A DNA stretch of 64,000 nucleotides, taken from an uncultured Eggerthellaceae bacterium (lineage in GTDB: Bacteria > Actinomycetota > Coriobacteriia > Coriobacteriales > Eggerthellaceae). The stretch lies in contig CAIFEG010000004.1 in the NCBI GenBank assembly GCA_903789415.1, positions 1 through 64,000 on the forward strand, in the 5' to 3' direction. The translations under genes and the position numbers were made by a program. Shown here piece by piece: positions 5,482 to 50,532 of the stretch. Every line of letters starts with the position of its first letter. The first letter of the stretch is position 1. A model generated the notes under the pieces. That model saw only the letters and a program-made list of their open reading frames with translations. It was not told where the DNA came from and did not search any database.

Positions 5482-6963
5482 ATGCCAAGCGAGAAAACAA
5501 CGTCAACTGTGTCCGCATCATCTGCGTCAGGCACTCCTGCATCGAATAGTGCAGGTGCGCCGAAACGCGAGCAATTTGCATCTCGTCTTGGCTTTATTTT
5601 AATTTCTGCAGGTTGCGCCATCGGGCTTGGGAATGTCTGGCGTTTTCCGTATATCACGGGCGAATATGGCGGCGCGGCATTCGTCATTATCTATCTGTTG
5701 TTCCTGGTTATCCTGGGACTTCCGGTTATGGTGATGGAATTTTCTGTTGGCCGTGCATCACAAAAAAGTTCCGCGCTGGCGGTCGATGTACTTCAGCCGA
5801 GCCGCCGTTGGCACTGGTTTACCTGGTGGGGTTTCATCGGATGCATCGTTTTGATGATGTTCTATACCGTGGTCTGTGGATGGATGCTCGACTATATCTT
5901 TAAGATGGCCACTGGAGCATTCAACGGGGCAGATTCAGCGGCGGTCACCGGCGTGTTTGCCGAAATGCTCGCAAATCCTGGCGAAATGATTTTCTGGACG
6001 CTCGTTGTGGTGGCTCTGGGTTACATCATCGTTGCGATGGGCTTGCAGAAGGGCGTTGAGCGCATCACTAAAGTGATGATGGTGTGCCTGCTTTTGGTTA
6101 TGGTTTTGCTGGCGATTCGTTCGGTGACACTTCCGGGTGCAGGTGAAGGTCTGGCATTCTATCTGCTCCCCGACTTTTCTCGCTTGTTTGCAGGCGATAC
6201 ACTCGGTGCGCAGATGACTACCTTTGCCGATGCGGTCTATGCGGCAATGGGGCAAGCGTTCTTCACTCTTTCGCTGGGTATTTCTGCAATGGAAATTTTC
6301 GGAAGCTATATCGGCAAAGACCGTTCGCTCAATGGTGAAGCGGCGCGTATTTGCGGGCTGGATACGTTTGTTGCGTTTGTTGCAGGTCTAATTATTTTCC
6401 CTGCGTGCGCGGCGTTTTCTGTAAGCCCTGATCAGGGCCCGTCCTTGGTGTTTGTGACGCTTCCAAGCGTGTTCAACCAGATGCCGCTTGGTCAGCTGTG
6501 GGGCGCACTCTTCTTCGTGTTCATGAGCTTCGCAGCACTTTCGACAATTATTGCCGTGTTTGAAAATCTTGCCGGCTGGTCCATGGACAAATGGGGCCAT
6601 TCTCGTAAATATTGCATTCGCCGTGTGGCGATTTTGATCGCGGTTTTGAGCATGCCCTGCGTACTGGGATACAACCTGTGGGCAGGCGTGAGCATTCCTG
6701 GCATCGGCGACATTCAATCACTTGAAGACTTCGTTGTTTCCAATAACCTGCTGCCTATCGGATCGCTTATTTACGTTCTTTTCTGCGTGAAGAAAAGCGG
6801 CTGGGGCTGGGACAACTTCATTGCTGAGGCCAATGCGGGTAAAGGTTTGCGATTCCCCGTGAAAGCACGTGGTTGGGTTACGTATGGCATTCCAGCGCTG
6901 ATCATCATTATTTTGATTATGGGCTATATACCGAAATTCGCTGTGTGGTTGGGGCTTGCGTAA
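5482..6963 (+). CDS. Neurotransmitter:sodium symporter (NSS/SNF) family transporter.
   Basis: NSS N-terminal signature GFILISAGCAIGLGNVWRFPY. The start at ATG 5482 (SD AAAGAAAGG) is preferred over the ORF-track start at 5419. Confidence 0.8.
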   Translation: MPSEKTTSTVSASSASGTPASNSAGAPKREQFASRLGFILISAGCAIGLGNVWRFPYITGEYGGAAFVIIYLLFLVILGLPVMVMEFSVGRASQKSSALAVDVLQPSRRWHWFTWWGFIGCIVLMMFYTVVCGWMLDYIFKMATGAFNGADSAAVTGVFAEMLANPGEMIFWTLVVVALGYIIVAMGLQKGVERITKVMMVCLLLVMVLLAIRSVTLPGAGEGLAFYLLPDFSRLFAGDTLGAQMTTFADAVYAAMGQAFFTLSLGISAMEIFGSYIGKDRSLNGEAARICGLDTFVAFVAGLIIFPACAAFSVSPDQGPSLVFVTLPSVFNQMPLGQLWGALFFVFMSFAALSTIIAVFENLAGWSMDKWGHSRKYCIRRVAILIAVLSMPCVLGYNLWAGVSIPGIGDIQSLEDFVVSNNLLPIGSLIYVLFCVKKSGWGWDNFIAEANAGKGLRFPVKARGWVTYGIPALIIIILIMGYIPKFAVWLGLA

Positions 6964-6998
6964 TAGATAGCAAGACGGGTAATAGATAGCAAGACGGG
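6961..6998. repeat. 19-bp perfect tandem duplication (TAATAGATAGCAAGACGGG x2) overlapping the stop codon of the NSS gene.
   Basis: Read directly from the sequence. Confidence 0.8.
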
Positions 6999-7094: not shown

Positions 7095-8237
7095 ATGCCG
7101 AACAATGGTCCACAGCCTCCCCAAGGGTATCCACAATCTCCGCAGGGGAACAATCAAGGCAACAATCAACAACCAGCTCAGGGTGGAAATCCACAGCAGC
7201 CGCAACAGCCGCAGCAGCCCCAGGGATACAACCAGCAGGCATCCCAGCAGGGATATGGCCAGCAGCAAGCGGGCTATCAACAACAAGGTCCGCAAGCGTA
7301 TCAGCAGCCACCACAGGGAGGTCCACAACGGCCTCAAGGAACGCCGCAAGCACCGCGGGGGTATGCTGACAACGCAAGAAATATTGCAGAAAAGCGCGCG
7401 TTCCATATCAACGGATATGCTGGATTGATTCTGGTCATCGTGGTAATTTTCTTTGCCTTGGGACTGTTGGTTCGTCCGTATACCAGCTTCTTGGGCGTCA
7501 TTCTTATCATAGTTGCGCTTATCTTTGGGAGCTCACTTACTACCATTCAGCCAAACCAAGCGAAAGTACTCACGTTTTTCGGCACCTATGTGGGAACCAT
7601 TCGTGAGGCCGGTCTTTTCATGACCATTCCGCTGACCCACAAGCAGACAGTTTCGCTTCGTGTGCGCAACTTCGCCAGTGATGTTTTGAAGGTCAACGAC
7701 GAAAAGGGTAACCCAGTCGAGATTGCCGCTGTGGTTGTGTATCGCGTGGTTGATACGGCGCGTGCGATCTTCGGTGTGGATAGATATCTGGAATTCGTGC
7801 GTGTTCAAAGTGAATCTGCAATTCGTCACGTGGCAAGCGAATATCCGTACGATACGTTCAGCGACGAGAATGTAGTCACCCTTCGCGGAAATGCGACGGA
7901 AGTTTCAAGCCGTCTGACCGAGGAGCTGCAAGAGCGCATGAATGTTGCCGGCATCCAGATTATTGAGACTCGTCTGGCACACCTTGCGTATGCAACTGAA
8001 ATTGCGGGTGCAATGCTTCAGCGTCAGCAATCCACTGCTATTCTTGCGGCGAAAAAGGTCATCGTCGATGGTGCTGTTGAGATTACCGAAGGCGCCATCA
8101 GGCAGCTCACTAAAGACACGGGACTTGAGTTGACGAGCGCGCAACAGATGCAGATCGTGAATAACATCATGGTCGCTATTATCAGTGAACGCGGAGCGCA
8201 GCCGGTTATTAATACGAGCGTCCAATCTACCGAGTAG
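7095..8237 (+). CDS. SPFH/band-7 (stomatin-prohibitin) domain membrane protein with a ~100-aa Q/P/G/Y-rich low-complexity N-terminus.
   Basis: SPFH core (IQPNQAKVLTFFG..VRNFASDVLKVNDEKGNPVEIAAVVVYRV). AAAGGAG SD lies 7 nt before ATG 7095. The ORF-track GTG at 7077 overlaps this SD. Confidence 0.8.
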   Translation: MPNNGPQPPQGYPQSPQGNNQGNNQQPAQGGNPQQPQQPQQPQGYNQQASQQGYGQQQAGYQQQGPQAYQQPPQGGPQRPQGTPQAPRGYADNARNIAEKRAFHINGYAGLILVIVVIFFALGLLVRPYTSFLGVILIIVALIFGSSLTTIQPNQAKVLTFFGTYVGTIREAGLFMTIPLTHKQTVSLRVRNFASDVLKVNDEKGNPVEIAAVVVYRVVDTARAIFGVDRYLEFVRVQSESAIRHVASEYPYDTFSDENVVTLRGNATEVSSRLTEELQERMNVAGIQIIETRLAHLAYATEIAGAMLQRQQSTAILAAKKVIVDGAVEITEGAIRQLTKDTGLELTSAQQMQIVNNIMVAIISERGAQPVINTSVQSTE

Positions 8238-8252: not shown

Positions 8253-9074
8253 ATGGTGGAAGAAAATCTCCATCGTGAAAGTTCTCGCGCGCAGCTTGAG
8301 GCGTACTATGCGTCGCTTTCGCGCGAAGATGACGTCGTGTCGCGCTGTGTGATGTGGCTTCCCACGGGCGCAGATGGCATGGCATTACGCGGGAAGACTG
8401 TGCTTGATGTTGCATGTCGCAAGGGCAAAGGCGTCTATGAAATTGCCGAAGACGTGGGACCAAATGGCCACGCGCTCGGACTTGACTGGAATAGCGATTT
8501 TATAGACGCTGCTCGCGCAGGGCAGGCGCATGCGATGGCGAAGATGCCGTGGGTGTGCGGCGCCGGTGGTGCTGGGCGAACGAGTGAAGCCACCGCGCAA
8601 GCAAGTGGATCCGATACGCGGTCACGTATGACTGCTGCAAAAAATCTCATGCAATTTTTTGTGGGGTTTCCCGAAGATTTAGTTGGCGCAGGGATTCCAG
8701 AGCACGGCGTTGACCTGGTATTTGTCAACACGGCTGCAAGCATGTTCTTTGACGCGCAGCGTGCCTATACCCAAATTGCACGCGTGCTTCGTGATGGTGG
8801 GCATCTACATCACGAGATGGTGTGCGTTGATGCCGCAGGTGAGCAGCAGGAAATGTCACCGACGCAAAGTTCGGATGAGTCGCGGAACTCGCTTCCCGCA
8901 TCGCTTGTTCATGCGCCAACAAAAGAAGACTTCATCGACCGAATTTCTTCAGCCGGATTTTCTTGCATCCAGGTCGTTTCAGAAGAGCCTCTTCAGCTTC
9001 CAGACACACCCATTTCAAAGGACGCTTCAGACAGATTTATCGATCTTGTTATAGATGCGGAAGTGCATCAATAG
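8253..9074 (+). CDS. Class I SAM-dependent methyltransferase.
   Basis: Motif I-like VLDVACRKGKG, and motif post-I/II-like LVFVNTAASMF. Confidence 0.5.
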   Translation: MVEENLHRESSRAQLEAYYASLSREDDVVSRCVMWLPTGADGMALRGKTVLDVACRKGKGVYEIAEDVGPNGHALGLDWNSDFIDAARAGQAHAMAKMPWVCGAGGAGRTSEATAQASGSDTRSRMTAAKNLMQFFVGFPEDLVGAGIPEHGVDLVFVNTAASMFFDAQRAYTQIARVLRDGGHLHHEMVCVDAAGEQQEMSPTQSSDESRNSLPASLVHAPTKEDFIDRISSAGFSCIQVVSEEPLQLPDTPISKDASDRFIDLVIDAEVHQ

Positions 9075-12000
9075 GAAATGCATCAATAGGAAGTGCATAT
9101 ATAAATTGAGCCAAGATTCAATGGTGACCCCAACCGCAGAACTTACGTCAGATGTCGAGCTGTTCTACGATATCGAAAGTACACCAAATGTCTTTTTGCT
9201 TTCTGTGTGTCAGGTTTCACCAGTTCAGCGTGATGATATTTTCTATCTCATAGACAATGCCAGCGAGATCTGCACCGACGATTGGCGGCGCACTACCGCG
9301 CAGCGTGTGCGCTCACAGAACAGTAATTTTACGGATGCGGCAATTTATTATCACGATCTCAGCAGCGAGCGAAGCATGCGTGATCTGGTGAATCTATTTG
9401 GGTGCTCGACGTCAGATTCTCCGGAAAAGCCGCCTCAGTTGGCGCCAAGTGCCATGCAACCATCACAAACGGGTGAAAATGCGGGAAAAGCCGCAGCCAT
9501 AAGCGCCGATGGAATTCCGTATGCGCCCATGAGTGTGGACATGGGCACCTTTGATACGCAGGGACAAACGTCAGCGCCCAAGTACTTCAAATGGTTGTTC
9601 GGGTTCAACTCGTACAATTACGATGTCACCATGGTTGCGTGGCTGTTTAGTCGTGTGAAGTGGTCAAATGGGCAGGCTGCCTATGAGCATCCGACTGCCG
9701 AGGATCTTCGTACGTTCAACGACCAACTGTTTCGCCGTGAAAATAGAGGCCAGATGCCGCAAGCGTTGGGAGGACCCGACGAGCCGGCTTCGCGCATTCG
9801 TCACAACATCATAAAGTGCGGAACGAACATCGACGTTGCGCGCTTAAATGAAAAGCAAAGTCATGCAGGTCTGAAGCGACTGCTGGGAATTCTGGGTTGT
9901 CAGATTTTGGAATCAGACAAAATTTCCGATGATCAGCATATCGAAAACACCGATCAGCTCGCAGACTTGATTGCGTATAACGCTTCGGATTGCGTGAACC
10001 TGGCGGTGCTTTTCCATCATCCGTTCTATCAGGGACAATTTGTGTTGAAGCACGGACTTTTACGCACATATCCGCAGCTTGTGTGGTGGCCGCGCGGAGG
10101 ACGTGTACCCGCAAACGAACACGCGGCAAACGTTCAAGATTATCGTGCGTTCCCAAGCGTCAACACAATGCGCGGCGATCGCCTTACCAGCGATTCGCGT
10201 TCAGCGCAGTTCGCCATTATGGCGTTGTGCCCCTATGGACACCTGAGCGACCTGCCCCATGTGGATCTTCATTATCCCGTTGTTATGGCCGATGGCACCA
10301 CGAAAAGTACCGATGTGCTTGAAATGGCGCGGGAGTTTTTTAACACGCATATTAATGGCACGAGTAAGGCGGCCGAACGAGCGCGTACGCAATTCCAGTT
10401 CGCCTATGAGTTCTATGACAATTTGCGCAATAAAAATTTCAATGCATCGCAGCAATATGCGGATGATTTCGGGACGAGCGCCGAAACGGTGCAGAGTGCG
10501 GCTAAGGTCATTCGTGATTTTGCGCATATCCATGCCGGCGACGACGGCGTGGGTGGTTCGGTATTTCTTCCGTATTACTTGGATAGTGAGGGCACGGAAT
10601 CCGATTGCTACGTGATGTTTTCTGTTGGTGGTTTGCATGGCGCTCAGCACGCGATGGGCGTCCATAAGGTGGGCGCGCCTGAGCAGGGAACACAGCTTTC
10701 GTTGCTCGACCAGCTCGCGGCAACTCCTGGCGGGCAGGACGAAGCGGCGCAAACGGAGCCGCAAGGTGTTGCGCTTGCCAAAAATGGCAGCCTGGACATT
10801 CGCTATGCGATGACCTCGGCAGGTGTGGTGTGGCACGAGGATTTCACGAGCTACTACCCTTCGATGCTTCGTAAGATGAAGGCGTTTGCAAATCCGGGCC
10901 TTGGCTTTGATGCAGATGGTGAGCCGGTTGATCGCTATGGGCAGCTTTTCGAGCAGAAGCAACTCTACAAGCGTTTGATGAATGATCCAAGTAAAAGTGC
11001 TGAGGAACAAAGCGAATATCGCATTCGTCGCGAGGGTGTAAAACTGCTGCTCAACTCAGCGTCAGGGGCAGGGGCTGCACCATTCGAAAATGCGATTCGA
11101 ATGGATAATCGCATCCTTTCGATGCGCATCATTGGCCAGCTGTTTACGTGGATGATCGGGCAGTCGCTTTCGCTTGAAGGTGGACGTGTGGTGTCGACCA
11201 ACACGGATGGTCTGTATGTGGCATTTGATCCTATTCCCGGCGATGAGCATGCCGAAACCCGCAACTTACGAGGGCTTCGTCGCGTGTCGGATAGCACGGG
11301 TGTCGAGATTGACCCTGAAATCTGTGGGCTCATTTCGAAAGACGCGAACAATCGTCTGGAGTTTGATCCCAAAACGCGAAAAATTGCCAATCCTGCGGGG
11401 GGAACACTTTCGTGTGCACTGGGTCCCGACCCCACCAAAGCGCTCAATCATGCAGCAGCTATTGACTATTTGCTTGCCCAGGTGCTCCTGGATGTCGAAG
11501 CGCAGCAACCCGATTTCAAGGTGCAGCTTACTCATGTGCAGGCGCGCGCCTATGTGGATCGAATGATCGAAGCGTGTGATATGTCCGATTCGCAGGCGGT
11601 GGGACGTCTGTTGCAAATGTTCCAGGTGGTTGTGGCGGCGTCGCCGTCGGTGCACAATTGGCCGTTTTTAACGTTGAATCCAGACGAAAATCAGCTTGCC
11701 CATGACCCAAGTGATCAGGCACTTCAGCAGTACAATCGTTTGTTTTTGGTTGATCGCACGCGTGCGAAAACCCAAAGCGCGCAGCTTCATGCACAGCCGA
11801 TGCATCTGTTGAGTGCGGCGTGTCGTGCAAATGCAAAGGGCGGATCGCAGCGTTCTGCTTGGGTACACAACATCACCGAGCCGTCGTATGATCCCGTCTC
11901 TGAAAGCAAAGCGTTCTGCATTCAAAAAGTCACGGGAATTCATCCGGAGTGGTGGGTCATTGTTGAAAATGGTTCGCTTTTCTATATGCCACATGAGCAG

Positions 12001-12123
12001 GCACAAGCAATCATTGACGCACTTGATCGCGATGTGTATGCCGAAATGCTCGCCCATACGTACAACACGAACTGGTCAAACGCGGGAAAGACGTTGCGGA
12101 AATCCCGAACAACCGGGAATTAG
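9055..12123 (+). CDS. Divergent family-B DNA polymerase with 3'-5' exonuclease domain (piPolB-like). The true start is probably ATG 9121.
   Basis: ExoI FYDIEST (D at 9169), ExoII FNSYNYDV (9604-9627), ExoIII YNASD (9976-9990), motif A DFTSYYPS (10840), motif B KLLLNSASGAG (11041), motif C TNTDGLYV (11206), and KTRK (11371) in place of KxY. Confidence 0.6.
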   Translation: MRKCINRKCINRKCIYKLSQDSMVTPTAELTSDVELFYDIESTPNVFLLSVCQVSPVQRDDIFYLIDNASEICTDDWRRTTAQRVRSQNSNFTDAAIYYHDLSSERSMRDLVNLFGCSTSDSPEKPPQLAPSAMQPSQTGENAGKAAAISADGIPYAPMSVDMGTFDTQGQTSAPKYFKWLFGFNSYNYDVTMVAWLFSRVKWSNGQAAYEHPTAEDLRTFNDQLFRRENRGQMPQALGGPDEPASRIRHNIIKCGTNIDVARLNEKQSHAGLKRLLGILGCQILESDKISDDQHIENTDQLADLIAYNASDCVNLAVLFHHPFYQGQFVLKHGLLRTYPQLVWWPRGGRVPANEHAANVQDYRAFPSVNTMRGDRLTSDSRSAQFAIMALCPYGHLSDLPHVDLHYPVVMADGTTKSTDVLEMAREFFNTHINGTSKAAERARTQFQFAYEFYDNLRNKNFNASQQYADDFGTSAETVQSAAKVIRDFAHIHAGDDGVGGSVFLPYYLDSEGTESDCYVMFSVGGLHGAQHAMGVHKVGAPEQGTQLSLLDQLAATPGGQDEAAQTEPQGVALAKNGSLDIRYAMTSAGVVWHEDFTSYYPSMLRKMKAFANPGLGFDADGEPVDRYGQLFEQKQLYKRLMNDPSKSAEEQSEYRIRREGVKLLLNSASGAGAAPFENAIRMDNRILSMRIIGQLFTWMIGQSLSLEGGRVVSTNTDGLYVAFDPIPGDEHAETRNLRGLRRVSDSTGVEIDPEICGLISKDANNRLEFDPKTRKIANPAGGTLSCALGPDPTKALNHAAAIDYLLAQVLLDVEAQQPDFKVQLTHVQARAYVDRMIEACDMSDSQAVGRLLQMFQVVVAASPSVHNWPFLTLNPDENQLAHDPSDQALQQYNRLFLVDRTRAKTQSAQLHAQPMHLLSAACRANAKGGSQRSAWVHNITEPSYDPVSESKAFCIQKVTGIHPEWWVIVENGSLFYMPHEQAQAIIDALDRDVYAEMLAHTYNTNWSNAGKTLRKSRTTGN

Positions 12124-12125
12124 CT

Positions 12126-13124
12126 TTAGCCCCGTGCACGCTGGTATGCCTGTGTGAGATCGAGATCCATGTCCACTGCGGTATCGATGCCGGGTAGATT
12201 TCCGTTGTTTGAATACTGCCACATGGTGAAATCAAAATTTGTCTGCGGAACGGCACCGTAACTTGCCACCCACAACGGGTAGTTTGAAAGCGAACTTAAA
12301 TCATAGTTTCCCAAGTCAGAGGCATTTCCGTATACCGTTGCCTGATAGCCGCGCTGGTTTACTTCATCGGCAAACGCCTTCATGATCTGGGTGTATTGAT
12401 CCTGCGTTAAATTGCTTGCACGATTTTGTGCCCCATTGGTGGGCTCCAAGTCGAATGCGATGGGGTACGCAATATCGGCGTTATTCAGCTGGCTTACCAC
12501 GTAATCTGCTTCCTGAACAGCCTCATCAGTGGTTGTAGCCTGGCTATAAAAATACACTCCCACATCAAGCCCGGCGGCACGCGCGTTCGCGAAATTTTCG
12601 TCAAAATAGGCATCTTTCACAATAGTGCCGGTATCGGTTGATCGATATCCCACGCGAATATAGGCAAACTGAATGCCGTAATCGTGCACCTGTGTCCAAT
12701 CGATTTCGTGCTGATGTTCAGAAACATCCACCCCCACACGCGAAAGTGTCGCAAGCCCACTTCGATATTCGTAAAGCCCTTTATCGTCTAAGGACAAATT
12801 ATTCCAATCGTAGGGTGATTGATATACTTGCTCGCTTGCGGTGTTATAGCTGGCAGTTTGGGTGACAGGTTCGCGGCTTGAACATGACCCTAACACATGG
12901 GCAACAACTGCAATAATGGCCAGAATTACGATAAGTAGAACAAGGCGAGGCCGCGTTTTGGTGGTGTAGTGGTATCGATGCTTTGCCGCGAAACGTATCG
13001 CCTTCTCGTTTATGCGGTTGTTCGGCGAAGGATTTCTTTGTGAGGATGATCTTTGCGTATGTCGTCCGGTTCTGGGCAAATACAACCACTCTTTCGTATG
13101 TAGGCTTTCACATGAAAGCGCCAC
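12126..13124 (-). CDS. GH25 family muramidase (lysozyme), probably a membrane-anchored lipoprotein.
   Basis: GH25 catalytic region DVSEHQHEIDWTQV..IQFAYIRVGY..VGVYFY. N-terminal hydrophobic segment ending LGSC (lipobox-like). Confidence 0.75.
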   Translation of the reverse strand: MALSCESLHTKEWLYLPRTGRHTQRSSSQRNPSPNNRINEKAIRFAAKHRYHYTTKTRPRLVLLIVILAIIAVVAHVLGSCSSREPVTQTASYNTASEQVYQSPYDWNNLSLDDKGLYEYRSGLATLSRVGVDVSEHQHEIDWTQVHDYGIQFAYIRVGYRSTDTGTIVKDAYFDENFANARAAGLDVGVYFYSQATTTDEAVQEADYVVSQLNNADIAYPIAFDLEPTNGAQNRASNLTQDQYTQIMKAFADEVNQRGYQATVYGNASDLGNYDLSSLSNYPLWVASYGAVPQTNFDFTMWQYSNNGNLPGIDTAVDMDLDLTQAYQRARG

Positions 13125-19501: not shown

Positions 19502-20878
19502 TTATGCGGTCAGTGTATTAATTGGTAATACATACACACCATCATTTGTGCGCTGACGAGCATACGTGCCCTTACCCACCACAACTGCCAAAAAGACAGG
19601 ATCAGGATTTCGAGCAGCAGTGTTGGCTTTTACCTTGTCACGCAGTCGCAGCAGATTGGCCGCAGCTTGGTCTGTTTTTGCTTCGCCGAGCTTTACTTCT
19701 AAGGCTGCCCACCGACCGTCGCGCAATTCGATGATGATATCGGCTTCAAGTCCATCTGCGTCTGAATAATAACGAAGTGGCTGTGTTTGTGCTCCCGGTA
19801 AAAGACTCGCGTACACTTCAAGATCGTGCACACAAAGTGATTCAAACAATATGCCGAAAAGTTGCCCGTCTTGTAGCAAACGTTCGGGGGATACTGCTAA
19901 AAGAGATGCTGCCATTGAAGGGTCATCAAGATAGCGTTTTGGCTTCGTGCGTACGCGGGAGCGAGAGCGCACAGGTGCATCCCAGCCGGGCAGTGTCTCG
20001 ATGAAGTAGTTTAACTCGAAACCTGTGAGGTACGATGACACTGTTTCAGGTGAAGGCGGATTATCCGACCCTTCTGCAGCATCCATCGCAAGGGTCTGTA
20101 ATGTGGCGCTTGTCCCCACATTGCGCGCGAGAGCAAGGGCAATTCGCCTGCTGAGCTGGGGATCTCTTCCAAGGCGCCGCATACTGATATTAAAAAGCGC
20201 GGAAAGATACTCGTCTACAGATGCCTGTGCACGTTCAAGTGGTTGGTTGATCAGGGCTGGCCAGCCGCCGTGACAAATGATTTCTGCGAGTTGCTCTAGG
20301 GTGAGTTTCGATTGCTGGGGCGCAAATTTCCCTTCAAACAAATCAGCTAATGAAACAGTTCCGCTTGAAATACCGAGTTCTGCCAATGTCATGGTGTGCA
20401 TGCGAATGCGTCCGATGCGTCCTGCGCCGCTATGACGATTTTCTTTGTCGAGCGGAGTTGAAGAACCAGTAAGAATGAACTGTCCGGGGGTGTTGGAAGA
20501 ATCGTCAATGCTGTGCCGCACATGGTTCCATATTGTTGGCACGTCCTGCCATTCGTCAACTGCATGGGGCTGATCGCCAATGAGAGCAAGCTCGGGCTCT
20601 TCGGTATAGATCTCAGGATTTTCATCTACCCGTGTGATGCTGCGAGCGAATGCTTCAGATGTCCATGACTTTCCGCACCAGCGTGTTCCACATACTTCAA
20701 TCGCACCAAACTCTTTCAGGCGCTTTTCCATGAGGCGGTCAACAAGGCGTGGTATGTATGTGTCGCGTTTTAAGGGTCCGTAGGCAGACATGTTGGACTT
20801 CCAATCAAACAGTGCAGATACCTGTAAATTGTTTAACCTCATTATAAGGCAATCGTGCTTTTCGAGGATTCTCAACAT
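19502..20878 (-). CDS. AAA-family ATPase with DUF4143 domain (AAA_14/DUF4143 type).
   Basis: Walker A GTRWCGKS. Typical DUF4143-family architecture, 458 aa. Confidence 0.65.
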   Translation of the reverse strand: MLRILEKHDCLIMRLNNLQVSALFDWKSNMSAYGPLKRDTYIPRLVDRLMEKRLKEFGAIEVCGTRWCGKSWTSEAFARSITRVDENPEIYTEEPELALIGDQPHAVDEWQDVPTIWNHVRHSIDDSSNTPGQFILTGSSTPLDKENRHSGAGRIGRIRMHTMTLAELGISSGTVSLADLFEGKFAPQQSKLTLEQLAEIICHGGWPALINQPLERAQASVDEYLSALFNISMRRLGRDPQLSRRIALALARNVGTSATLQTLAMDAAEGSDNPPSPETVSSYLTGFELNYFIETLPGWDAPVRSRSRVRTKPKRYLDDPSMAASLLAVSPERLLQDGQLFGILFESLCVHDLEVYASLLPGAQTQPLRYYSDADGLEADIIIELRDGRWAALEVKLGEAKTDQAAANLLRLRDKVKANTAARNPDPVFLAVVVGKGTYARQRTNDGVYVLPINTLTA

Positions 20879-20972
20879 CGATTTTCGAGGAAATTCAACC
20901 GTGATTTTCGAGTGGCTTCAATCGGTATTTTCGAGCCATATCATTCGTGTTTTTCGAAAACCTCAGCTATTT
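20858..20972. repeat. Five tandem 23-bp repeats (ATTTTCGAG-N5-TCAA-N5) with period exactly 23 bp. They begin on the start codon of the DUF4143 ATPase and run upstream.
   Basis: Copies begin at 20858, 20881, 20904, 20927 and 20950. Confidence 0.85.
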
Positions 20973-31518: not shown

Positions 31519-31598
31519 CAGAGTAAGTGATGCTCGGCTGCCGCTTAAATGAGTGGCGTTCGGCTGTCGCTTAAATGAGCGATGCTCGCCTGCTTCTT
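31519..31598. repeat. Three tandem ~27-bp imperfect repeats (GCTCGGCTGCCGCTTAAATGAG-like) upstream of the LuxR-type regulator gene.
   Basis: Read directly. Confidence 0.7.
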
Positions 31599-31729
31599 AA
31601 TCAAAAAGCAAGTTAGCTGAACGCCGCTTGGTTTACGTTGTTTTTGTCATTCTCAACAAGGCCAGACAGAGGCGCTGCGTTCGTAGGATATGCTAATCTT
31701 ACGTATGCACGCAAGATGTCTGGTCTTTT

Positions 31730-39947: not shown

Positions 39948-40018
39948 GCACGAATTTGCGCGTTGTCTTGCACCCAGCCCAAAAGCGGTACGTTTGCCGT
40001 GCCGGCGGAAGACGTGTG

Positions 40019-40142
40019 TGGCTAGAACATACCTGCCGGACATCTGAATGCTCGTGGCTAGAACATACCTGCCGGACATCTGAATGTTCGTGACTAAAAC
40101 ATACCTGCCGGGTATCTGAATGTTTGTGGCACTGCGTGCTCG
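40019..40142. repeat. 3.4 tandem copies of a 36-bp repeat (TGGCTAGAACATACCTGCCGGACATCTGAATGCTCG) in the fdhE-ATPase intergenic region.
   Basis: Copies at 40019, 40055, 40091, plus a partial copy at 40127. Confidence 0.85.
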
Positions 40143-43017: not shown

Positions 43018-43821
43018 CTATAATTCCGCAGGAATTTGTTCTGTTTGATACGGAAACACGATTCTCAGCTTATTGCTAATGGGCGTGACGGGCACCATAT
43101 ATGAACGCACGTGATAGAACTCTTTGATGGTATCTTCGTTAATCACGGATTTTGTGGGACCCATCAGTTGTTTCCCATTGCTTCCAAGAAATAGCGTGTC
43201 GTCCGAAATCCTAAGCGCGTTGTTGGGGAAATGGGTGTTGATTATGCATGTGGTATCACCTTTATCCGCAATGCGCTCTATTACATCGAGCACACGCAAT
43301 TGGTTTGCCATATCCAGGTTGGATTCGGGTTCATCTAAGATGAGTACCTCTGGATCACTTACCAGTGCACGTGCGATCAGCACCATCTGCAACTGACCTC
43401 CGCTTACGCGGTCACAATTTCGCTCAGCAAGGTCAGCGAGGCCGAGCCATTCGAGTGCCGCCTGTGCTTTTTCATAATCCTCTTTTGATGGTGTAGAGAA
43501 CAGTGAAGAAGAGGCGTTGAGCCCCATGACCACCGTGTCAATGACACGATACGAAAATGAGCTTTGTTTTGCCTGGGGCACATAGCTAATATGCGACCAC
43601 ACTTCTTTATGGGAATATGAATGGAATGGAGCGCCGTTGAGGAGTGTTTCACCTTCTTTCCATGGCAAAAACCCCATCAGACATCTGAGTAGCGTTGTTT
43701 TCCCAACGCCGTTTGCGCCCAGGATAGTGAGTACCTTGTTTTCGGGCACCTTTAAATTCAGGTGGTCAAATAAGAGCTTTCCGCGATATCCGAAGCATCC
43801 ATTGTGAATTTCTACTTTCAT
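43018..43821 (-). CDS. Iron-chelate/cobalamin-type ABC transporter ATP-binding protein (FecE/BtuD family).
   Basis: Walker A GANGVGKTT, signature SGGQLQMV, Walker B LILDEP. Start MKVEIHNG with a GGAGGGAG SD. Confidence 0.85.
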   Translation of the reverse strand: MKVEIHNGCFGYRGKLLFDHLNLKVPENKVLTILGANGVGKTTLLRCLMGFLPWKEGETLLNGAPFHSYSHKEVWSHISYVPQAKQSSFSYRVIDTVVMGLNASSSLFSTPSKEDYEKAQAALEWLGLADLAERNCDRVSGGQLQMVLIARALVSDPEVLILDEPESNLDMANQLRVLDVIERIADKGDTTCIINTHFPNNALRISDDTLFLGSNGKQLMGPTKSVINEDTIKEFYHVRSYMVPVTPISNKLRIVFPYQTEQIPAEL

Positions 43822-44918
43822 TTTGCACTCCCTCCGGTTTTTTGAAGCAGTGACATAAAGACAGGTGCGCCAATAATTGCCGTGAGAATAGACAAAGGAA
43901 TTTCCGTTCCTGTTGCACACCGTGCAATATCGTCAATAAGTAAAAGGTATGCTCCTCCCATCAGCATTGATGAAGGAATTAGGACGCGGTGATCGTTCCC
44001 TACGATCATTCGACACATATGTGGAATGACTAAGCCGATCCAGCCAATAACGCCGCAGAGCGACACGGTTACTGCCGTCATAAGGGTTGCGATAACAAGC
44101 ACAAGAATGCGCATTTTGCTTACATCGATGCCAAGCGAAGCAGCTTCTTCTTCGTCAAGGGATAGAAGGTTGAGCTTCCAACGCAGCAGCCAAAGCAAGA
44201 TGCAGCATGGCAAGATTATGATGGCAGAGGTAACTACGTCTCCATATGATGAAGAGGTAAGCGATCCCATCAGCCATGTGACGATAGCAGGCAGTTGGTC
44301 ATATGGGTCGGCCACATATTCCAAGAGTGAAACAAGCGCTGAAAACAGAGAACTTACGATTACGCCTGCAAGGACCAACATATACAGCTGTGTTTTCTTT
44401 TGCACACGTCCCAGAAAAATTACTATCACCAGGGCGATTAATCCAAAAGCAAGTGACCAGGCTTGGATTCCGATTGTTCCTACCGAAAGAAGAATGCCGA
44501 GTGTTGCGCCAAAGCTTGCTCCGGAAGATACACCCAGAATGTCGGAGCTGACGAGGGGGTTCCCGAACACCGCTTGATATGTTGCACCGGCTTCGGCAAG
44601 TGCCGCGCCCACGAGGATTCCCATAAGAATACGGGGCATTCGCACCGAAAATACGATGTTTGATGCCATAGGATCGACGTTTGACTGAGTTAATGTTCCC
44701 CAGAGTACCTGAATGATATCTGAGGGTGAAAACTGGTAGCGGCCAAGGCAGAGAGAAAAGATAAACGTTGCGATCAGAAGTATGAGCAGGGCAAGGATGG
44801 CAATTCCGCCATGCTTATGTCGCTCGTTGGTCTGGCTTTGGAGTGCGCCGGTCTTGCTTTGGCCGGCGGGAGTTTTCGCGGCTTTTTCTCCTTTGATGAC
44901 CTTGTTTTTGCTGCTCAT
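43818..44918 (-). CDS. FecCD-family ABC transporter permease.
   Basis: 366 aa, about 9-10 TM helices. 4-bp overlap with the ATPase gene. Confidence 0.85.
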   Translation of the reverse strand: MSSKNKVIKGEKAAKTPAGQSKTGALQSQTNERHKHGGIAILALLILLIATFIFSLCLGRYQFSPSDIIQVLWGTLTQSNVDPMASNIVFSVRMPRILMGILVGAALAEAGATYQAVFGNPLVSSDILGVSSGASFGATLGILLSVGTIGIQAWSLAFGLIALVIVIFLGRVQKKTQLYMLVLAGVIVSSLFSALVSLLEYVADPYDQLPAIVTWLMGSLTSSSYGDVVTSAIIILPCCILLWLLRWKLNLLSLDEEEAASLGIDVSKMRILVLVIATLMTAVTVSLCGVIGWIGLVIPHMCRMIVGNDHRVLIPSSMLMGGAYLLLIDDIARCATGTEIPLSILTAIIGAPVFMSLLQKTGGSAK

Positions 44919-46135
44919 GATGCTGACTTCTTTACGAACGCATGGTCAACAAGTTTGAGGAACGAGGTTCCATATGGGCACAGATGCTTATCCCATGACA
45001 GACGGCTCGACACCGCAGCATGAGGAACTTCCACAAACGCTGTTCCTTCACTCACATACGGCTGGAGCAGGCCATCGCCTACCACGAGGTCATAATTACC
45101 CGAACCTGCCAGGTCAAGCGCTTGAAGCTCGCTTATCGTTCCATGATCACCCTCAGAAAGGGGCTGATCCCAATCAAAGAATGTCGCGGTTTCTACCTTC
45201 GCAAATCCCATATCTTCGATAAGTGACTGGCGTATGCTGTGTGCAAGCACTTGCTCTCCGATGACAAGAGCGCGATCGTGACCACCAGTCGCCTCTGGCC
45301 CTTGTTCAGCAGGTTTACCTTCCGCTACCATCTCCAAATTACGCAGAAAACGCTGCACAGGTTTCTCACCTGATAGAGAACCATCAATATACGGAATACC
45401 GAGCGCCTGGTTCATCCAGGCTGCAACGTCATGTCCGCTTCGCGTAAGTACAACGTTACATGCAGCATTCTGCGCTTCGGCCAGTTCATCGAGCGATGAA
45501 CCCATGCACCAGCAGCTTTCGATGGCCCATCCCGCATCTTCCAAAATGTCCTTGATGGCCTGTACATTTTCATTGTTAAGCAGATCTAATGGAGTTGCTC
45601 CAAGCAGATTTACACTTTTGGTGTGACGCTGCTTTTGAGAGCGTGGCTTTGGGTTAGGAAAGACAAGATCACGAGCGAGTTTAAGCATGGCAAGTGACAC
45701 GCCATAGTCGTAGTAACGTGTGCCCGTAGTTTCAAATGCAAGCACCGGCGTGTGAATCTTTCGCTGCAGCTCTTTACCAAGAGCCTTTAAGTCAGTTCCC
45801 AAAATCATGGGATTCGGCGAGCCAATGATGGCAACAAAACGCCCCCCAACTGCCTCTTGAGTATGCGCACTGGCTTCTACAAATAAGTCATCTCGCCCGA
45901 ATAGCGCCTGCATATCATCGAGGGCGGAAGTGAATACGCGTGCATGGCTGCTGTAGGCGCGCGGTTCATCGTATCCTACGAAATTTCCGGTGCACCCCGC
46001 AGGGTCATGGAAAATGATGGTGCCATCAAGCTCAAATAATGCCGATGCGACGCCGGAATAATCGCCAGCGAACGTAGGAAGATACATGTGAATACGCGTA
46101 TCGTTTAAGAGATCTTGTGGGAATTTTTCATTCAT
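44915..46135 (-). CDS. Nitrogenase component-1-like oxidoreductase subunit (NifK/NifN/BchB-like).
   Basis: 406 aa, Cys-containing Nif D/K-fold sequence. Translationally coupled to the upstream D-like gene. Confidence 0.65.
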   Translation of the reverse strand: MNEKFPQDLLNDTRIHMYLPTFAGDYSGVASALFELDGTIIFHDPAGCTGNFVGYDEPRAYSSHARVFTSALDDMQALFGRDDLFVEASAHTQEAVGGRFVAIIGSPNPMILGTDLKALGKELQRKIHTPVLAFETTGTRYYDYGVSLAMLKLARDLVFPNPKPRSQKQRHTKSVNLLGATPLDLLNNENVQAIKDILEDAGWAIESCWCMGSSLDELAEAQNAACNVVLTRSGHDVAAWMNQALGIPYIDGSLSGEKPVQRFLRNLEMVAEGKPAEQGPEATGGHDRALVIGEQVLAHSIRQSLIEDMGFAKVETATFFDWDQPLSEGDHGTISELQALDLAGSGNYDLVVGDGLLQPYVSEGTAFVEVPHAAVSSRLSWDKHLCPYGTSFLKLVDHAFVKKSAS

Positions 46136-47592
46136 TAGACCACCAACGTTTTCTCCAACAGCATCTTGCGTGTATCGCGCGTTTCCGTAAGTGCATGTTT
46201 TACTTCGCTTAGCAGGTATTCAATGGCCTGGAAACCAAATGGCTGCTGATCAACACCCCATGGCACGCACGTCGCCTCTGGGCACAGACGCCCTACATCA
46301 AATCCCACGGCAATATCAACTGGTTCATTCAAGCCGGTAACGGTTGCCATACGAGGGTTTGTGCTCGGATAGACGGGAAGCGTGGGGTTTACCTGCATGA
46401 GTTCATCCACATAGGGGGCATCTGATGCAGCTGCTTCCTCGGCGACGAGCGCGACGATGTGTGCACCGGCCTGCTGAAGCAAGGCTGCAATTTCGAATGT
46501 CGAACCATTCAGGCTTGATCCGACGGCAACATTTTTCCCTGAAAGCCAAGAGCGAGCTTCCTCAATCGATTGCTGTGCATGCGTTTTATATGGCTCGTAT
46601 TCGAGCTTGACGCCAAGTGCTTCGCCAAGTGCATCGTACATATGTGCTACATGATCGATCGACATGGGCATGCCTGTGAGCTTGTACGGTGTGCCCCATT
46701 TCTTTTTCATTTCATCGCAGGCCAAGCGGCCGAATGCTTTAAGCAAGATATTGAAATGCGACAATCGTATCTCGGCGAATTCATCGAAGTTTTTGCATGC
46801 CGCTATTTGATGGACGCTTTGATACCCTGCCTGTTTGAGCAGCGGATATAGCTCAGATTCAGCCGCGACAGGAGCGAAACCACCGATAATATTGATGGCG
46901 TGTTCGTCGTGTGGTCCTTGGGGAAGATGCTCAAGCACATGATATATGGTGCGCTGCAGGGTGACCGGAGGTGGCGTGTGTGACGTCATAGTCACGGGGT
47001 CCATGTGGCCATCCACAAACGGAATCCCATATTTGTGCTCCATTTCTGCAGCGAGACCACGGTAATCTGATCCAAGCAGATCGTCCACGCAGGTGCTGAA
47101 TAGTAAGAACGCGCGAGGCCGTGGCCTGCGATGCTCCATAATCCACGCCACCGCTTGTTTGACACGTTCAAGATGTGTGCCCATTACTAAATCTGATTCT
47201 GTGGCGTCCAGGTAATAGATGCGATCGCGGTATCCATTCATGATTGCTGATAACGATCCGTGCCGTCCGCATCCAGCAGGAGCGGTAAACAGGATCACCG
47301 AATCAGGCACCTGTATTGCTCCGCGAACAATGCCCCATCCACCGGCGCACGGAGCCACATACCGCACGAATCCTTTTGGGGTGAGACACCCTTCGGTAAT
47401 TGGCAGTCCCACTACCTGGGATCCGTCTGCAGAATCTTCCAACACATCACTTGGCCGTGATGTGCGGTCCACCATATCTTTGAGCGGTACTGCTACGCCC
47501 GCATCTGTCTGTGTCCTCTGTGTATAAGGAGGATTTTTCTTAGACGAGAGCTGCGCAGCGTCGCTGCTTGTATGACGCGTCGTCTGTTTCAT
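46135..47592 (-). CDS. Nitrogenase component-1-like oxidoreductase subunit (NifD/NifE/BchN-like).
   Basis: 485 aa, conserved Cys ligand regions (EGCLTPKG.., APAGCGRHG). Confidence 0.65.
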   Translation of the reverse strand: MKQTTRHTSSDAAQLSSKKNPPYTQRTQTDAGVAVPLKDMVDRTSRPSDVLEDSADGSQVVGLPITEGCLTPKGFVRYVAPCAGGWGIVRGAIQVPDSVILFTAPAGCGRHGSLSAIMNGYRDRIYYLDATESDLVMGTHLERVKQAVAWIMEHRRPRPRAFLLFSTCVDDLLGSDYRGLAAEMEHKYGIPFVDGHMDPVTMTSHTPPPVTLQRTIYHVLEHLPQGPHDEHAINIIGGFAPVAAESELYPLLKQAGYQSVHQIAACKNFDEFAEIRLSHFNILLKAFGRLACDEMKKKWGTPYKLTGMPMSIDHVAHMYDALGEALGVKLEYEPYKTHAQQSIEEARSWLSGKNVAVGSSLNGSTFEIAALLQQAGAHIVALVAEEAAASDAPYVDELMQVNPTLPVYPSTNPRMATVTGLNEPVDIAVGFDVGRLCPEATCVPWGVDQQPFGFQAIEYLLSEVKHALTETRDTRKMLLEKTLVV

Positions 47593-47594
47593 AT

Positions 47595-48344
47595 TTATTC
47601 CTCCATTAATTTATCCGCAATAGACTGAAACGTCTGCGAAATGGGCAATGAGGAATCCATCTGTTCGACTGTCATGCCTTGGTCTTCAGCTTGCTGAATA
47701 TTGTCATCACGCGGAACAATACCCAAAATCTGAGTATGGATACTGTCAGCAAAGTTTTGGACAATCTCCTTTTCATTGGGGACATTTCGACAATTCAGGA
47801 TAATTCCACGCAAACGCGCATAGCCGCGTGACGAGAATGATTCAAGTGCTTTGTTGATATTGTTGGCAGCATAGAGTGCCATCTTTTCCCCTGAGGTAAC
47901 GATAACCACTTCATCGGCGTATCCTGCCCGCAGAGGTGTAGCAAAACCACCACATACTACGTCTCCTAAAACATCGAAGAAAACGTAATCGGGGTCGTAT
48001 TTGTCAAATGCTTCGAATTCTTCAAGTGTCTCGAATGTTTTTACGATACCGCGGCCTGCGCAGCCACTTCCTGGGGTTGGGCCGCCCGCCTCAACACAGG
48101 CGACTCCCCGGTAGCCCTGGGTCACAATTTGATCCAGTGATGGACACGTTCCACCGTGTTCCATAAGTACTTCCATCACCGGTTTTATGGTTGTGCCTTC
48201 AAGTAAGTTAAATGTCGAATCGGCCTTGGGATCGCAGCCAATTTGCATGACCCGTTTTCCTTCATCTGCCATACAAGCAGAAAGAGTTGATGTTACGGTT
48301 GACTTCCCGATACCGCCTTTTCCATAAATTGCAATTTTTCTCAT
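47595..48344 (-). CDS. NifH/BchL/CfbC-family ATP-dependent reductase (nitrogenase iron protein-like).
   Basis: P-loop GKGGIGKST, switch regions, and both 4Fe-4S Cys (CVEAGGP, VCGGFA). 249 aa. Confidence 0.85.
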
Positions 48345-48478
48345 TACATCTCATCCGTTTCATACACTGCCAATATTTAACGAGTGGGTAGTGAGCACCC
48401 GCGCAAAACGTGAGCATGATGAGCATGGACTTTGCTGTCATAACTTGGATGGCTTAAGCCCTGTGCTCGCTATTGCTG

Positions 48479-49645
48479 CTATTCCTGCGTGTGATCGAGC
48501 ATCTGCGAGAGTTGATCATCAGAAATTTGGTAGTCATACACGTCTTGATAGAAGGTGGTTACTTCTGCTTTCATGTCCATATCTTGGAATAAATCAGGAT
48601 GCATGATCTTAGAGAGCCACTTAATCATGAGAGGTGATTCCACTGATGGGGGATCCCAGCGATATGCGCCGATAGGAATCTTATACACATGGTTGTGCTG
48701 TACGGCGGCAACGCCTGACCAGTCTTCTCCCGAAAGCGTGTTATTCATTAGGTCTGAAGGCATAATGTCGGTGAAGTTGCCGATGAATATATATTCTGGG
48801 TTCCAGGTAAGAATTTGCTCCATATCCACTTTTGCGCTTTGCTGCTGAAGTGTTGCGGCCGGGTCGTCCGACCCACTTGTACTCAGCAAATATGGAGTGA
48901 ACCCTGAGCCGTCTACGGTAAGGTCATCAGCCAAGTGGATTGCAACTGGTTTATCCGCATCAGAAAGTCCTGATAGCCTGTCCGTCACCTCAGCAACCTG
49001 AGTGTCGTAATATGAAGAAAGGAAATCTGCACGATCTTGTCTTTGAGTCATTGTGCCAATGATGCTCAGCCAGGTCTTTAAATCATCGACGGTACCGTAT
49101 TGCAGCGCGATTACTTTCAGCCCGGCGTCTTCCATCGACTGAATACTTTCAGGTTGTGTTGTCCATTGGAATACCACATCAGGCTGCAGTGCAAGCAATT
49201 GTTCGACATTTACGGTAAAGTTGCGCGCCGTCCAGTCTGTATTAATATTTGCCATCTCAGGATACATATCCTTCAACGTGCTTTTTTCGTAGGCAGGCAT
49301 CGATGCGGGGTTGCACCCAACCAGCGTGTCGGTATTGCCCATAAAAGCAAAATAGATTGATGGGAACGGAATAATGGTTGTGCAGACGCGTTGAGGCACA
49401 CTGTCAAATGTGATGGTCTTACCCAACTGGTCCGTTACTTCAATTGAAGCTGTCGAAGTGGACCCCTGGTCATTGCTTTGCGAACCTGAATTAGAGCCCG
49501 AACTCGAATCAGAGTTTCCCGATGAACAGCCAGCCATTCCAAGTAAGCCGGAGGCAGCAAGCAATCCGGCTCCCATAACAAAATGCCGACGGTCAATTAA
49601 TCTATTTCGCTTGAGCGAATAGCTGTTATTCTCTTTGCCTGCCAT
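48479..49645 (-). CDS. ABC transporter periplasmic-type substrate-binding lipoprotein (FecB/BtuF class).
   Basis: RR-containing signal plus lipobox (LGMAGC). Class III SBP fold sequence. Confidence 0.75.
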   Translation of the reverse strand: MAGKENNSYSLKRNRLIDRRHFVMGAGLLAASGLLGMAGCSSGNSDSSSGSNSGSQSNDQGSTSTASIEVTDQLGKTITFDSVPQRVCTTIIPFPSIYFAFMGNTDTLVGCNPASMPAYEKSTLKDMYPEMANINTDWTARNFTVNVEQLLALQPDVVFQWTTQPESIQSMEDAGLKVIALQYGTVDDLKTWLSIIGTMTQRQDRADFLSSYYDTQVAEVTDRLSGLSDADKPVAIHLADDLTVDGSGFTPYLLSTSGSDDPAATLQQQSAKVDMEQILTWNPEYIFIGNFTDIMPSDLMNNTLSGEDWSGVAAVQHNHVYKIPIGAYRWDPPSVESPLMIKWLSKIMHPDLFQDMDMKAEVTTFYQDVYDYQISDDQLSQMLDHTQE

Positions 49646-50200: not shown

Positions 50201-50291
50201 GGAGAGATGTCCGAGTGGCCGAAGGAGCACGATTGGAAATCGTGTATACGCCAAAAGCGTATCTGGGGTTCAAATCCCCATCTCTCCGCCA
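50201..50291 (+). tRNA. tRNA-Ser (anticodon GGA), CCA encoded.
   Basis: Cloverleaf with a long variable arm. Anticodon loop TGGAAAT. T-loop GGTTCAAATCC. Confidence 0.85.
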
Positions 50292-50333
50292 GTTCACATA
50301 TTTACCGGTGAATTTCGCAACCGGTCCATCCGT

Positions 50334-50426
50334 GGAGGGGTGGCAGAGCGGTTGAATGCGGCGGTCTCGAAAACCGTTTTACCCCATATTCGGGTAACGA
50401 GGGTTCGAATCCCTCCTCCTCCGCCA
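50334..50426 (+). tRNA. tRNA-Ser (anticodon CGA), CCA encoded.
   Basis: Cloverleaf with a long variable arm. Anticodon loop CTCGAAA. T-loop GGTTCGAATCC. Confidence 0.85.
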
Positions 50427-50468
50427 TTTTTTGATTCAAAATTTTTTGGTCGAAAATTGATCCAAAAA

Positions 50469-50532
50469 GGCAATCCTGTAAAAAGGTAATCCTATAAAAA
50501 GATAATCCTGTAAAAAGGCAATCCTGTAAATG
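50469..50532. repeat. Four tandem 16-bp repeats (GGCAATCCTGTAAAAA-like) immediately 3' of the tRNA-Ser pair.
   Basis: Period 16, copies at 50469, 50485, 50501 and 50517. Confidence 0.8.

Follow-up and report, generated by a model that had tools for sequence, protein, structure and literature searches.

The stretch of DNA analysed here (the window, 64,000 nucleotides) is derived from an uncultured Eggerthellaceae bacterium (GenBank assembly GCA_903789415.1, contig CAIFEG010000004.1, positions 1 to 64,000). Within it lies a gene for a 1000-amino acid (aa) family-B DNA polymerase (PolB), in the gene order PTR2 transporter, GTPase, MFS transporter, SNF symporter, SPFH protein, methyltransferase (MTase), polymerase, GH25 and HtpG. 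An initial annotation, made from the sequence alone, described an orphan polymerase resembling the primer-independent PolBs (piPolBs) of pipolin mobile elements. The neighbours that it described (SPFH/Band7, class-I MTase, GH25 and HtpG) were confirmed, the open reading frame (ORF) at 9055-12123 on the + strand exists, and every quoted motif is found in its translation. From the analysis presented here, the polymerase is a new divergent member of the crAss-like family-B lineage. The features of the locus are given below, with residue numbers counted from the methionine at 9121.

7095-8237, + strand: SPFH/Band7 gene, co-oriented with the polymerase gene
8253-9074, + strand: class-I S-adenosylmethionine MTase gene, co-oriented with the polymerase gene
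9059..9103, no strand assigned: three tandem 15-bp direct repeats (GGAAGTGCATCAATA), spanning the end of the MTase gene and the 46-bp gap
9121..12123, + strand: coding sequence of the 1000-aa family-B DNA polymerase, including the TAG stop
9163..9183, + strand: ExoI, FYDIEST, residues 15-21; D17 and E19 are family-invariant
9604..9627, + strand: ExoII, FNSYNYDV, residues 162-169; N163, Y167 and D168 are invariant
9976..9990, + strand: ExoIII, YNASD, residues 286-290, of the DEDDy type; Y286 and D290 are invariant
10693..10716, + strand: QLSLLDQL, residues 525-532, a candidate beta-clamp-binding motif in a clade-specific loop predicted to be disordered
10840..10863, + strand: motif A, DFTSYYPS, residues 574-581; the catalytic D574 and the steric-gate region Y578/Y579 are invariant
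11041..11073, + strand: motif B, KLLLNSASGAG, residues 641-651; K641, N645, S646 and G649 are invariant
11194..11220, + strand: motif C, STNTDGLYV, residues 692-700; N694 stands for the first Asp of DTD and the catalytic D696 is kept
11329..11361, + strand: LISKDANNRLE, the strand at the KxY position; family-invariant, aligning with phage QKDVNNY with R745 in place of Tyr
11371..11382, + strand: KTRK, residues 751-754, in a variable loop and not a conserved motif

The coding sequence most likely starts at ATG 9121, as had been suggested, and not at 9055. This start is favoured because the MTase ORF ends at 9074 and would be overlapped by a start at 9055, because an independent gene call on an identical public contig begins at the equivalent position, and because the N-terminal extension is not conserved in two orthologues; all of these agree. 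Ahead of the start, the three copies of the 15-bp direct repeat were confirmed at 9059-9103, and the reading of the KCINRK stretch of the longer ORF as translated repeat DNA is supported.

Invariant residues, a PHROG match and the predicted fold bear out the description of the protein as a family-B polymerase, roughly 1000 aa long, whose DEDDy exonuclease and polymerase motifs are intact. An alignment of 26 family sequences contains approximately 130 invariant columns, and all of the exonuclease and polymerase catalytic residues are among them. Motifs A, B and C occur in the order DFTSYYPS, KLLLNSASG and STNTDG with a spacing like that of Pol II. The first Asp of motif C is an Asn across the whole family as well as in the PolBs of crAss-like phages. 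Scans against Pfam (DNA_pol_B, DNA_pol_B_exo1, DNA_pol_B_2) and NCBIfam gave no match for the polymerase. The Pfam models also miss the related phage PolBs, which explains why the window protein carries no Pfam annotation.

Among PDB sequences, phmmer identified a sole match with an E-value of 0.2 to P. abyssi PolB, spanning motifs B and C, and a search with the polymerase profile gave no match. The AlphaFold model (predicted local distance difference test, pLDDT = 73.9; predicted template modelling score, pTM = 0.75) presents a PolB fold consisting of exonuclease, palm, fingers and thumb. Fold searches with this model returned RNA/DNA-primed PolBs, and phi29 was absent among the top fold matches. 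The best viral fold matches were phage DNA polymerases of 590-760 aa, including those of Lactococcus phage P087 and the crAss-like phage cr3_1.

The phage connection is also seen at the level of sequence profiles. The polymerase matches phrog_1252 ("DNA polymerase") with an E-value of 2.5e-24, while the PolBs of P087 and of cr272_1, the crAss-like representative used in the comparisons, match PHROG 1252 at 4e-121 and 5e-133, respectively. When the family profile was aligned by hhalign with a profile of five phage PolBs, 418 columns were matched with a probability of 98.8% and an E-value of 1.1e-16. The motifs common to both are GGxHG, DxxSxYPS, KxxLNxxxG, NTDG and KDxNN. Homologues of the P087 PolB were found in 1002 phage records, among them Enterococcus, Seurat-like, Barba-like, Leuconostoc and crAss-like phages. 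A tblastn search of 50,697 phage records with the window polymerase itself gave no match. Judged by these profile comparisons, the polymerase family represents a distant branch among the crAss-like/P087-like phage PolBs of PHROG 1252.

The two groups have in common their homology, the GGxHG motif ahead of motif A, NTDG, KDxNN, an exonuclease at the extreme N-terminus, and the absence of a Pfam match. They differ in length, with the phage enzymes at approximately 560-760 aa and the window protein at 1000 aa, most of the extra residues falling either between ExoIII and motif A or within the C-terminal part. The Tyr of KDVNNY, which is invariant in the phage enzymes, is replaced by Arg (R745) in the window protein and in the whole ~1000-aa family. 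Furthermore, the phage PolBs are part of replication modules, whereas the window gene is a lone chromosomal copy. According to Kazlauskas et al. 2020 (PMC7544198), the crAss-like PolB group is divergent within the EpsilonN-like clade, and its MotifC and KxY show "profound" differences. More recently, "crAss-like_1" (representative S1QZ24) and "crAss-like_2" (A0A0U3BJH5) were listed among eight bacterial PolB groups (Timinskas et al. 2026, PMC12926913), and the ~1000-aa family may be a candidate equivalent of one or the other.

The ~1000-aa family is compact and well isolated from the canonical PolBs. A word-indexed search identified more than 621 clusters at 90% identity, approximately 950-1150 aa in length, without any Pfam domain and mostly unnamed. 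A full hidden Markov model search of 1.84 billion representatives at 50% identity gave 591 matches at E <= 1e-3, of which 365 were at E <= 1e-30. The window protein aligns to the family with 97-99% coverage and E-values of 1e-140 to 1e-160. Only two members are close relatives, at 79% and 76% identity; all others were at 37% or below. A profile scan of GTDB species representatives returned 94 relatives, none from the species of the window, and a genome scan with the polymerase as a single-protein query recovered no relatives. A literature search on the family, the P087 PolB, and elements that combine D5, SNF2 and PolB genes found nothing specific.

Members of the family, which occurs on both actinobacterial and firmicute mobile elements, are carried on IMG/VR viral contigs of roughly 35-250 kb and on large plasmids of Streptomyces, Gordonia and Rhodococcus, where they adjoin a "P4-family primase". 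Plasmid examples are WP_014924751 from Gordonia pGKT2 and WP_329142832 from a Streptomyces plasmid. Others are found in chromosomes or metagenome-assembled genomes (MAGs) of Streptomyces, Arthrobacter, Kribbella, Actinomyces, Lachnospiraceae, Lactobacillus and others. For a survey of gene neighbourhoods, all ORFs of 124 fetched loci and of the initial 25 kb of the window were clustered, 125 sequences in total, of which 120 carry the polymerase. A D5-like superfamily 3 (SF3) helicase (DUF5906/Pox_D5/D5_N; phrog_864 "DNA primase" at 5e-77) was present in 88 of these 120 loci, typically directly upstream of the polymerase. An SNF2 helicase was encoded downstream in 86 of the 120, where it is frequently accompanied by a VRR-NUC nuclease, a glutaredoxin and an MgsA-like ATPase. 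Thus, the family normally serves as the replicase of a mobile-element replication module.

The pairing of helicase and polymerase is also reflected in phrog_4210, a profile of 1304 positions whose N-terminal part is matched by the helicase and whose C-terminal part is matched by the P087 PolB. HelPrimPolB fusions, in which an SF3 helicase, a PrimPol and a PolB are joined, form a sister divergent group in the same clade as the crAss-like PolBs (Kazlauskas et al. 2020, PMC7544198). The mobile-element form of the ~1000-aa family, with its SF3 helicase gene directly upstream of the PolB gene, mirrors the fused order. Unlike the fusions, the genes are separate in the ~1000-aa family, and in the window the helicase is wholly absent. 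One 378-kb contig binned as a Clostridia MAG (L003/L044) encodes a family polymerase in a long co-oriented run of small genes that includes an RNase H, a RecG-like helicase, an SNase, an AAA ATPase, an integrase and a sigma factor, with no adjacent D5-like helicase. Its appearance is that of a very large phage or plasmid whose module is laid out differently.

As hallmarks, piPolBs possess TPR1/TPR2, a motif C of the form SxTTDG, and KH-X8-KTRG in place of KxY (Redrejo-Rodriguez et al. 2017, PMC5695915). The initial annotation had placed KTRK of the window protein at the KxY position, from which the polymerase would be a piPolB-like enzyme, left over from a pipolin and capable of initiating DNA chains de novo. 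The resemblance has some basis. In both cases the first Asp of motif C is replaced, the canonical KxY is missing, the exonuclease is N-terminal and the length is roughly 1000 aa; ExoI begins at residue 15 of the window protein, and there is hence no long N-terminal domain. In one lineage KTRK is located 57 residues past motif C, and in a genuine piPolB chosen for comparison (plasmid pSE-12228-03, 1109 aa, with SVTTDG and KTRG) the KTRG is located 63 residues past it.

On alignment, KTRK does not occupy the KxY position. It is instead found 6 residues past a conserved strand, L-I-S-K740-D-x-N-N-R745-x-E, that is invariant in the 26 sequences. Family-wide, the strand reads L-[IV]-S-K-D-x-N-N-R-x-E, such that the Lys of KxY is kept and the Tyr becomes Arg. 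The canonical form of KxY is absent from the window polymerase, where the strand reads SKDANNR, and from the alignment and the predicted strands at residues 733-739 and 745-748, LISKDANNRLE would be the equivalent of KxY. The loop that contains KTRK varies in both length and sequence across the family, with insertions of more than 40 residues in some members. Even within the clade of the window protein, KTRK is present in only two of three members; the third (orthologue P0001) reads TTRT, and no KH accompanies the motif. The spacing of the polymerase motifs provides a second line of evidence:

Window protein: 67 residues from motif A to motif B, 53 from motif B to motif C
E. coli Pol II: 74 and 52 residues
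Phage P087 PolB: 45 and 54 residues
crAss-like cr272_1 PolB: 50 and 52 residues
phi29 DNA polymerase: 134 and 73 residues
piPolB (pSE-12228-03): 163 and 70 residues

A spacing of 67/53 leaves no room for TPR1/TPR2 in the window protein. In profile comparisons, hhalign aligned the family with the single piPolB at an E-value of 0.62, with the TDG of motif C alone aligned, and with phi29 DNA polymerase at 0.43, as opposed to the 1.1e-16 obtained with the crAss-like phage PolBs. The likeness of motif C to that of piPolBs is superficial by sequence comparison, since the residue in STNTDG is Asn, as in the phages that replicate with such enzymes, and not the Thr of SxTTDG. The fold searches likewise favour RNA/DNA-primed PolBs over phi29. 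The D5-type primase-helicase that adjoins the mobile copies argues for primers that are supplied. A pipolin context is also wanting: none of the 30 ORFs scanned matched an integrase family, and 38 kb separate the polymerase from the nearest tRNA genes. With KTRK unconserved, no TPR1/TPR2, no conserved KH-X8-KTRG and no profile similarity to speak of, the piPolB-like assignment does not hold, and primer-independent synthesis by this protein is extremely improbable. A firm placement outside the piPolBs, which the initial annotation had named as evidence against its own reading, was reached, but the family in which the protein is placed lacks the canonical KxY as well.

The QLSLLDQL segment may be of functional importance. 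The strict pattern QL[SD]L[FL] was found only in the clade of the window protein (three lineages and duplicate contigs) when 236 family sequences were scanned, and the looser pattern Q[LM]xL[FL] gave no further strict match in a set of 551 sequences. Residues 516-532 of the model have a pLDDT below 50. The QLSLL loop takes the place of a block of approximately 45 aa that is conserved in the rest of the family. From the motif, the polymerase is possibly tethered to the sliding clamp through this loop. Peptides of a similar type, namely QMSLF, QMTLF, QISLF, QE[ST]LF, QLTLLSELF and QMDLF, were observed at the C-termini of other members (P0040, P0057, P0060, P0145, P0293 and others), and these members likely use the host sliding clamp. 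Taken together, the C-terminal peptides and the QLSLL of the clade suggest that use of the host clamp is general in the family, and that a separate tether arose in the orphan clade.

The genomic context of the window polymerase is unlike that of its mobile relatives. While it aligns with them over its full length at 33-41% identity, has the same length and motifs, and retains the ~130 invariant columns, it has a QLSLL loop of its own, has lost two segments, and stands without the usual partners: no homologue of the D5-like helicase, the SNF2 helicase or the VRR-NUC nuclease was found anywhere in the 64-kb window. As had been noted, no integrase is nearby. No integrase or recombinase Pfam family was identified among the 30 window ORFs that were scanned, a scan that did not extend to a systematic search for att-type direct repeats. 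The tRNA-Ser genes 38 kb from the polymerase are at 50.2 kb.

An identical public contig shows the gene order of the window, as does the locus of the 76% orthologue, and on a short contig with the 79% orthologue the MTase gene is again upstream of the polymerase. Between the three lineages, the polymerase is 75-78% identical and the flanking genes are 74-88% identical, with the MTase evolving faster at 50-56%. For the polymerase, the proportion of nonsynonymous differences (pN) is 0.14-0.17, and that of synonymous differences (pS) is saturated at 0.71-0.81; the ratio dN/dS is approximately 0.09 where it could be computed. Its guanine-cytosine (GC) content of 0.49-0.54 is like that of its surroundings. 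Cryptobacterium curtum and another relative contain the SNF/GH25/HtpG region without the polymerase. These observations are explained by one ancestral capture followed by vertical inheritance under purifying selection. Given the fixed housekeeping neighbourhood, the host-like composition and the strong purifying selection, the polymerase is read as a domesticated gene of the host, not as an active element or a relic in decay. Of the two fates that the initial annotation had proposed, domestication is thus favoured by synteny, selection and GC content, and a relic is contradicted by the intact frame and low pN.

A relic, in the form of a functionless or catalytically dead pseudo-enzyme left by an integrated phage or plasmid, would account for the loss of the D5-like helicase, SNF2 helicase and VRR-NUC partners, for the loss of two family-conserved segments in what is the most divergent branch of the family, and for the Asn at the first Asp of motif C. 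Such decay is difficult to reconcile with a frame of 1000 codons that is intact in three lineages despite saturated synonymous sites, with the retention of all family-invariant catalytic residues, and with host-like GC content. The Asn is also present in phages that replicate (P087, Seurat, crAss-like) and is therefore a family trait, not a lesion; moreover, a piPolB with TTD in motif C is enzymatically active (PMC5695915). A decaying relic is accordingly considered unlikely.

The source organism itself appears to be new. The best named match of its HtpG is from C. curtum at 64% identity, with Raoultibacter at 59%, and on the strength of the former it is probably a member of an undescribed Eggerthellaceae genus. 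The window proteins form clusters of 1-4 members at 90% identity, and the source lineage is probably a rarely sampled one.

The SPFH and MTase genes are separated by 15 bp and the MTase and polymerase genes by 46 bp, an arrangement that is kept in the orthologous loci L001 and L125. The three genes may form one operon. It could be argued further that they work as a three-gene unit, for example as a defence or DNA-modification module, given that all three are together in the orthologous loci and all three are missing from the C. curtum site between SNF and GH25-HtpG, where a TauE gene is present instead. The MTase is also a weak PADLOC match to mad2 (7.5e-7). Against this, neither the polymerase nor the SPFH protein has a PADLOC match, the MTase matches generic class-I (UbiE-type) models of small-molecule MTases, and SPFH or MTase homologues are near the polymerase in none of the approximately 120 other family loci. 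C. curtum is distant, as judged by its HtpG, such that the difference in gene order may reflect an unrelated rearrangement, and the orphan polymerase of Lactobacillus delbrueckii, described below, has other neighbours. Overall, there is little likelihood that the three genes form a functional unit. The idea that SPFH and MTase were part of the ancestral element was rejected, as no homologue is near any other family member.

The 15-bp repeats upstream of the polymerase are not recognisably conserved upstream of the two orthologues, and no regulatory role is therefore proposed for them. Other tandem repeats, with units of 15-36 bp in 2-4 copies, were identified in the window at 6960-6998, 20859-20935, 31529-31600, 40018-40130 and 50464-50530, at least some of them between ORFs. 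One of these, with 4.2 copies of a 16-bp unit, directly follows the tRNA-Ser pair at 50201-50426. Short tandem repeats are thus a common feature of the genome and not one peculiar to the polymerase gene. Scans for promoters and terminators gave no more than background signal.

Elsewhere in the window, positions 19-1016 contain a clustered regularly interspaced short palindromic repeat (CRISPR) array with approximately 15-16 copies of a 36-nt repeat (GTTGAAGATCTGCCTTCTGACTAGCTGATATACTTA) and spacers roughly 28-30 nt in length. The identical public contig (L124) has cas9, cas1 and cas2 ahead of the array, indicating a type II system. An AAA_14/DUF4143 ATPase is encoded at 19502-20878 on the - strand and is a strong match to the PADLOC candidate defence family PDC-S01 (2.3e-54). 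The cluster at 43818-49645, also on the - strand, is a nitrogenase-like reductase system: it encodes a NifH-like ATPase and two proteins of the nitrogenase component 1 type, with a FecCD permease and a periplasmic binding protein flanking them.

A second orphan lineage of the polymerase family was found in L. delbrueckii, L. equicursoris and related MAGs (L047, L048, L051 and L123), again with no helicase partners. In L048 the polymerase is at 9980-12847, and the polymerases of the L. delbrueckii group are approximately 80% identical to each other. Here the gene is positioned between S-layer protein genes and a core block containing a phosphoribosyltransferase, an rRNA-type methyltransferase, tadA, dnaX, recR, tmk and holB. 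A record titled Faecalicatena absiana YH-C36a contig6 (L049) has a downstream neighbourhood of the Lactobacillus type and a polymerase that groups with the L. delbrueckii clade; this record may be contaminated or mislabelled.

From the evidence as a whole, the best explanation for the window polymerase, and one that is probably correct, is an intact proofreading family-B polymerase, most likely primer-dependent, that was domesticated as an accessory cellular polymerase. We infer a catalytically active enzyme that would extend primers made by host enzymes, proofread with its own DEDDy exonuclease, and that may be recruited to the beta sliding clamp by way of the clade-specific QLSLL in its disordered loop. 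Its cellular role could be gap filling, repair, replication restart or lesion bypass, as for Pol II in E. coli.

The Pol II-like role is suggested by analogy. Like E. coli Pol II and the G3 PolBs, the window polymerase is chromosomal, non-replicative and equipped with an intact DEDDy exonuclease, and its A-B-C spacing of 67/53 is close to the 74/52 of Pol II. With Pol II itself, hhalign aligns ExoIII alone (E-value of 0.095), and several features of Pol II are absent from the window protein: the canonical N-terminal domain, a DTDS motif C, KxY and the C-terminal QLGLF. For the gene, no SOS box was found. The bacterial PolB groups G1 and G3 are considered to have been introduced from viruses (PMC7544198).

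Several observations weigh against the assignment of an accessory cellular role. We know of no biochemistry for the crAss-like PolBs, and there is none for the ~1000-aa family. The Asn in motif C and the missing Tyr of KxY mean that activity and primer handling could differ from those of canonical PolBs. Confidence in the structural model is no more than moderate. The QLSLL motif was spotted post hoc and is internal rather than C-terminal. As the most divergent branch, the clade of the window protein is 34-41% identical to the other groups, compared with 41-49% among those groups, and it lacks the FRxxCDTDxxYD segment and the block of about 45 aa after GGxHGA, both of which are conserved in the family. 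With this loss and divergence, the function could have changed or been reduced. A search for actinobacterial LexA boxes gave 37 matches where 30 were expected, none convincing near the polymerase, and nothing of an SOS-box nature thus ties the gene to the damage response. Lastly, the tight co-orientation of the SPFH, MTase and polymerase genes is left without explanation by an accessory polymerase.

A more speculative proposal is that the family, and the orphan with it, convergently gained an unusual ability in initiation or lesion bypass by means of the altered motif C Asp and the K-D-x-N-N-R strand, the two active-site elements in which piPolBs have changed as well. This is thought to be very unlikely. 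If it were true, the lone chromosomal copies, for which no primase is dedicated, would be enzymes that the host has recruited and that synthesise DNA self-sufficiently.

With an accessory, primer-dependent polymerase as the favoured explanation, the analysis has consequences for how such proteins are annotated. A tempting misannotation is removed, as a protein is not a piPolB by virtue of a KTRK that arose by chance in a variable loop. The analysis also provides a name and lineage for approximately 600 sequence clusters that are called "hypothetical protein" and are missed by Pfam and NCBIfam; these proteins are remote relatives of the crAss-like replicases. Actinobacteria are typically without B-family polymerases according to a recent survey (PMC12926913).

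In two unrelated Gram-positive lineages, the Eggerthellaceae clade and the L. delbrueckii group, a mobile-element replicase has been kept alone on the chromosome, and for the Eggerthellaceae clade the selection acting on it was measured and is purifying. L. delbrueckii is a possible cultivable organism in which the function of such an enzyme could be tested. Both orphan lineages are small, fresh examples of bacterial accessory PolBs that came from viruses, the origin that has been proposed for Pol II and G3.

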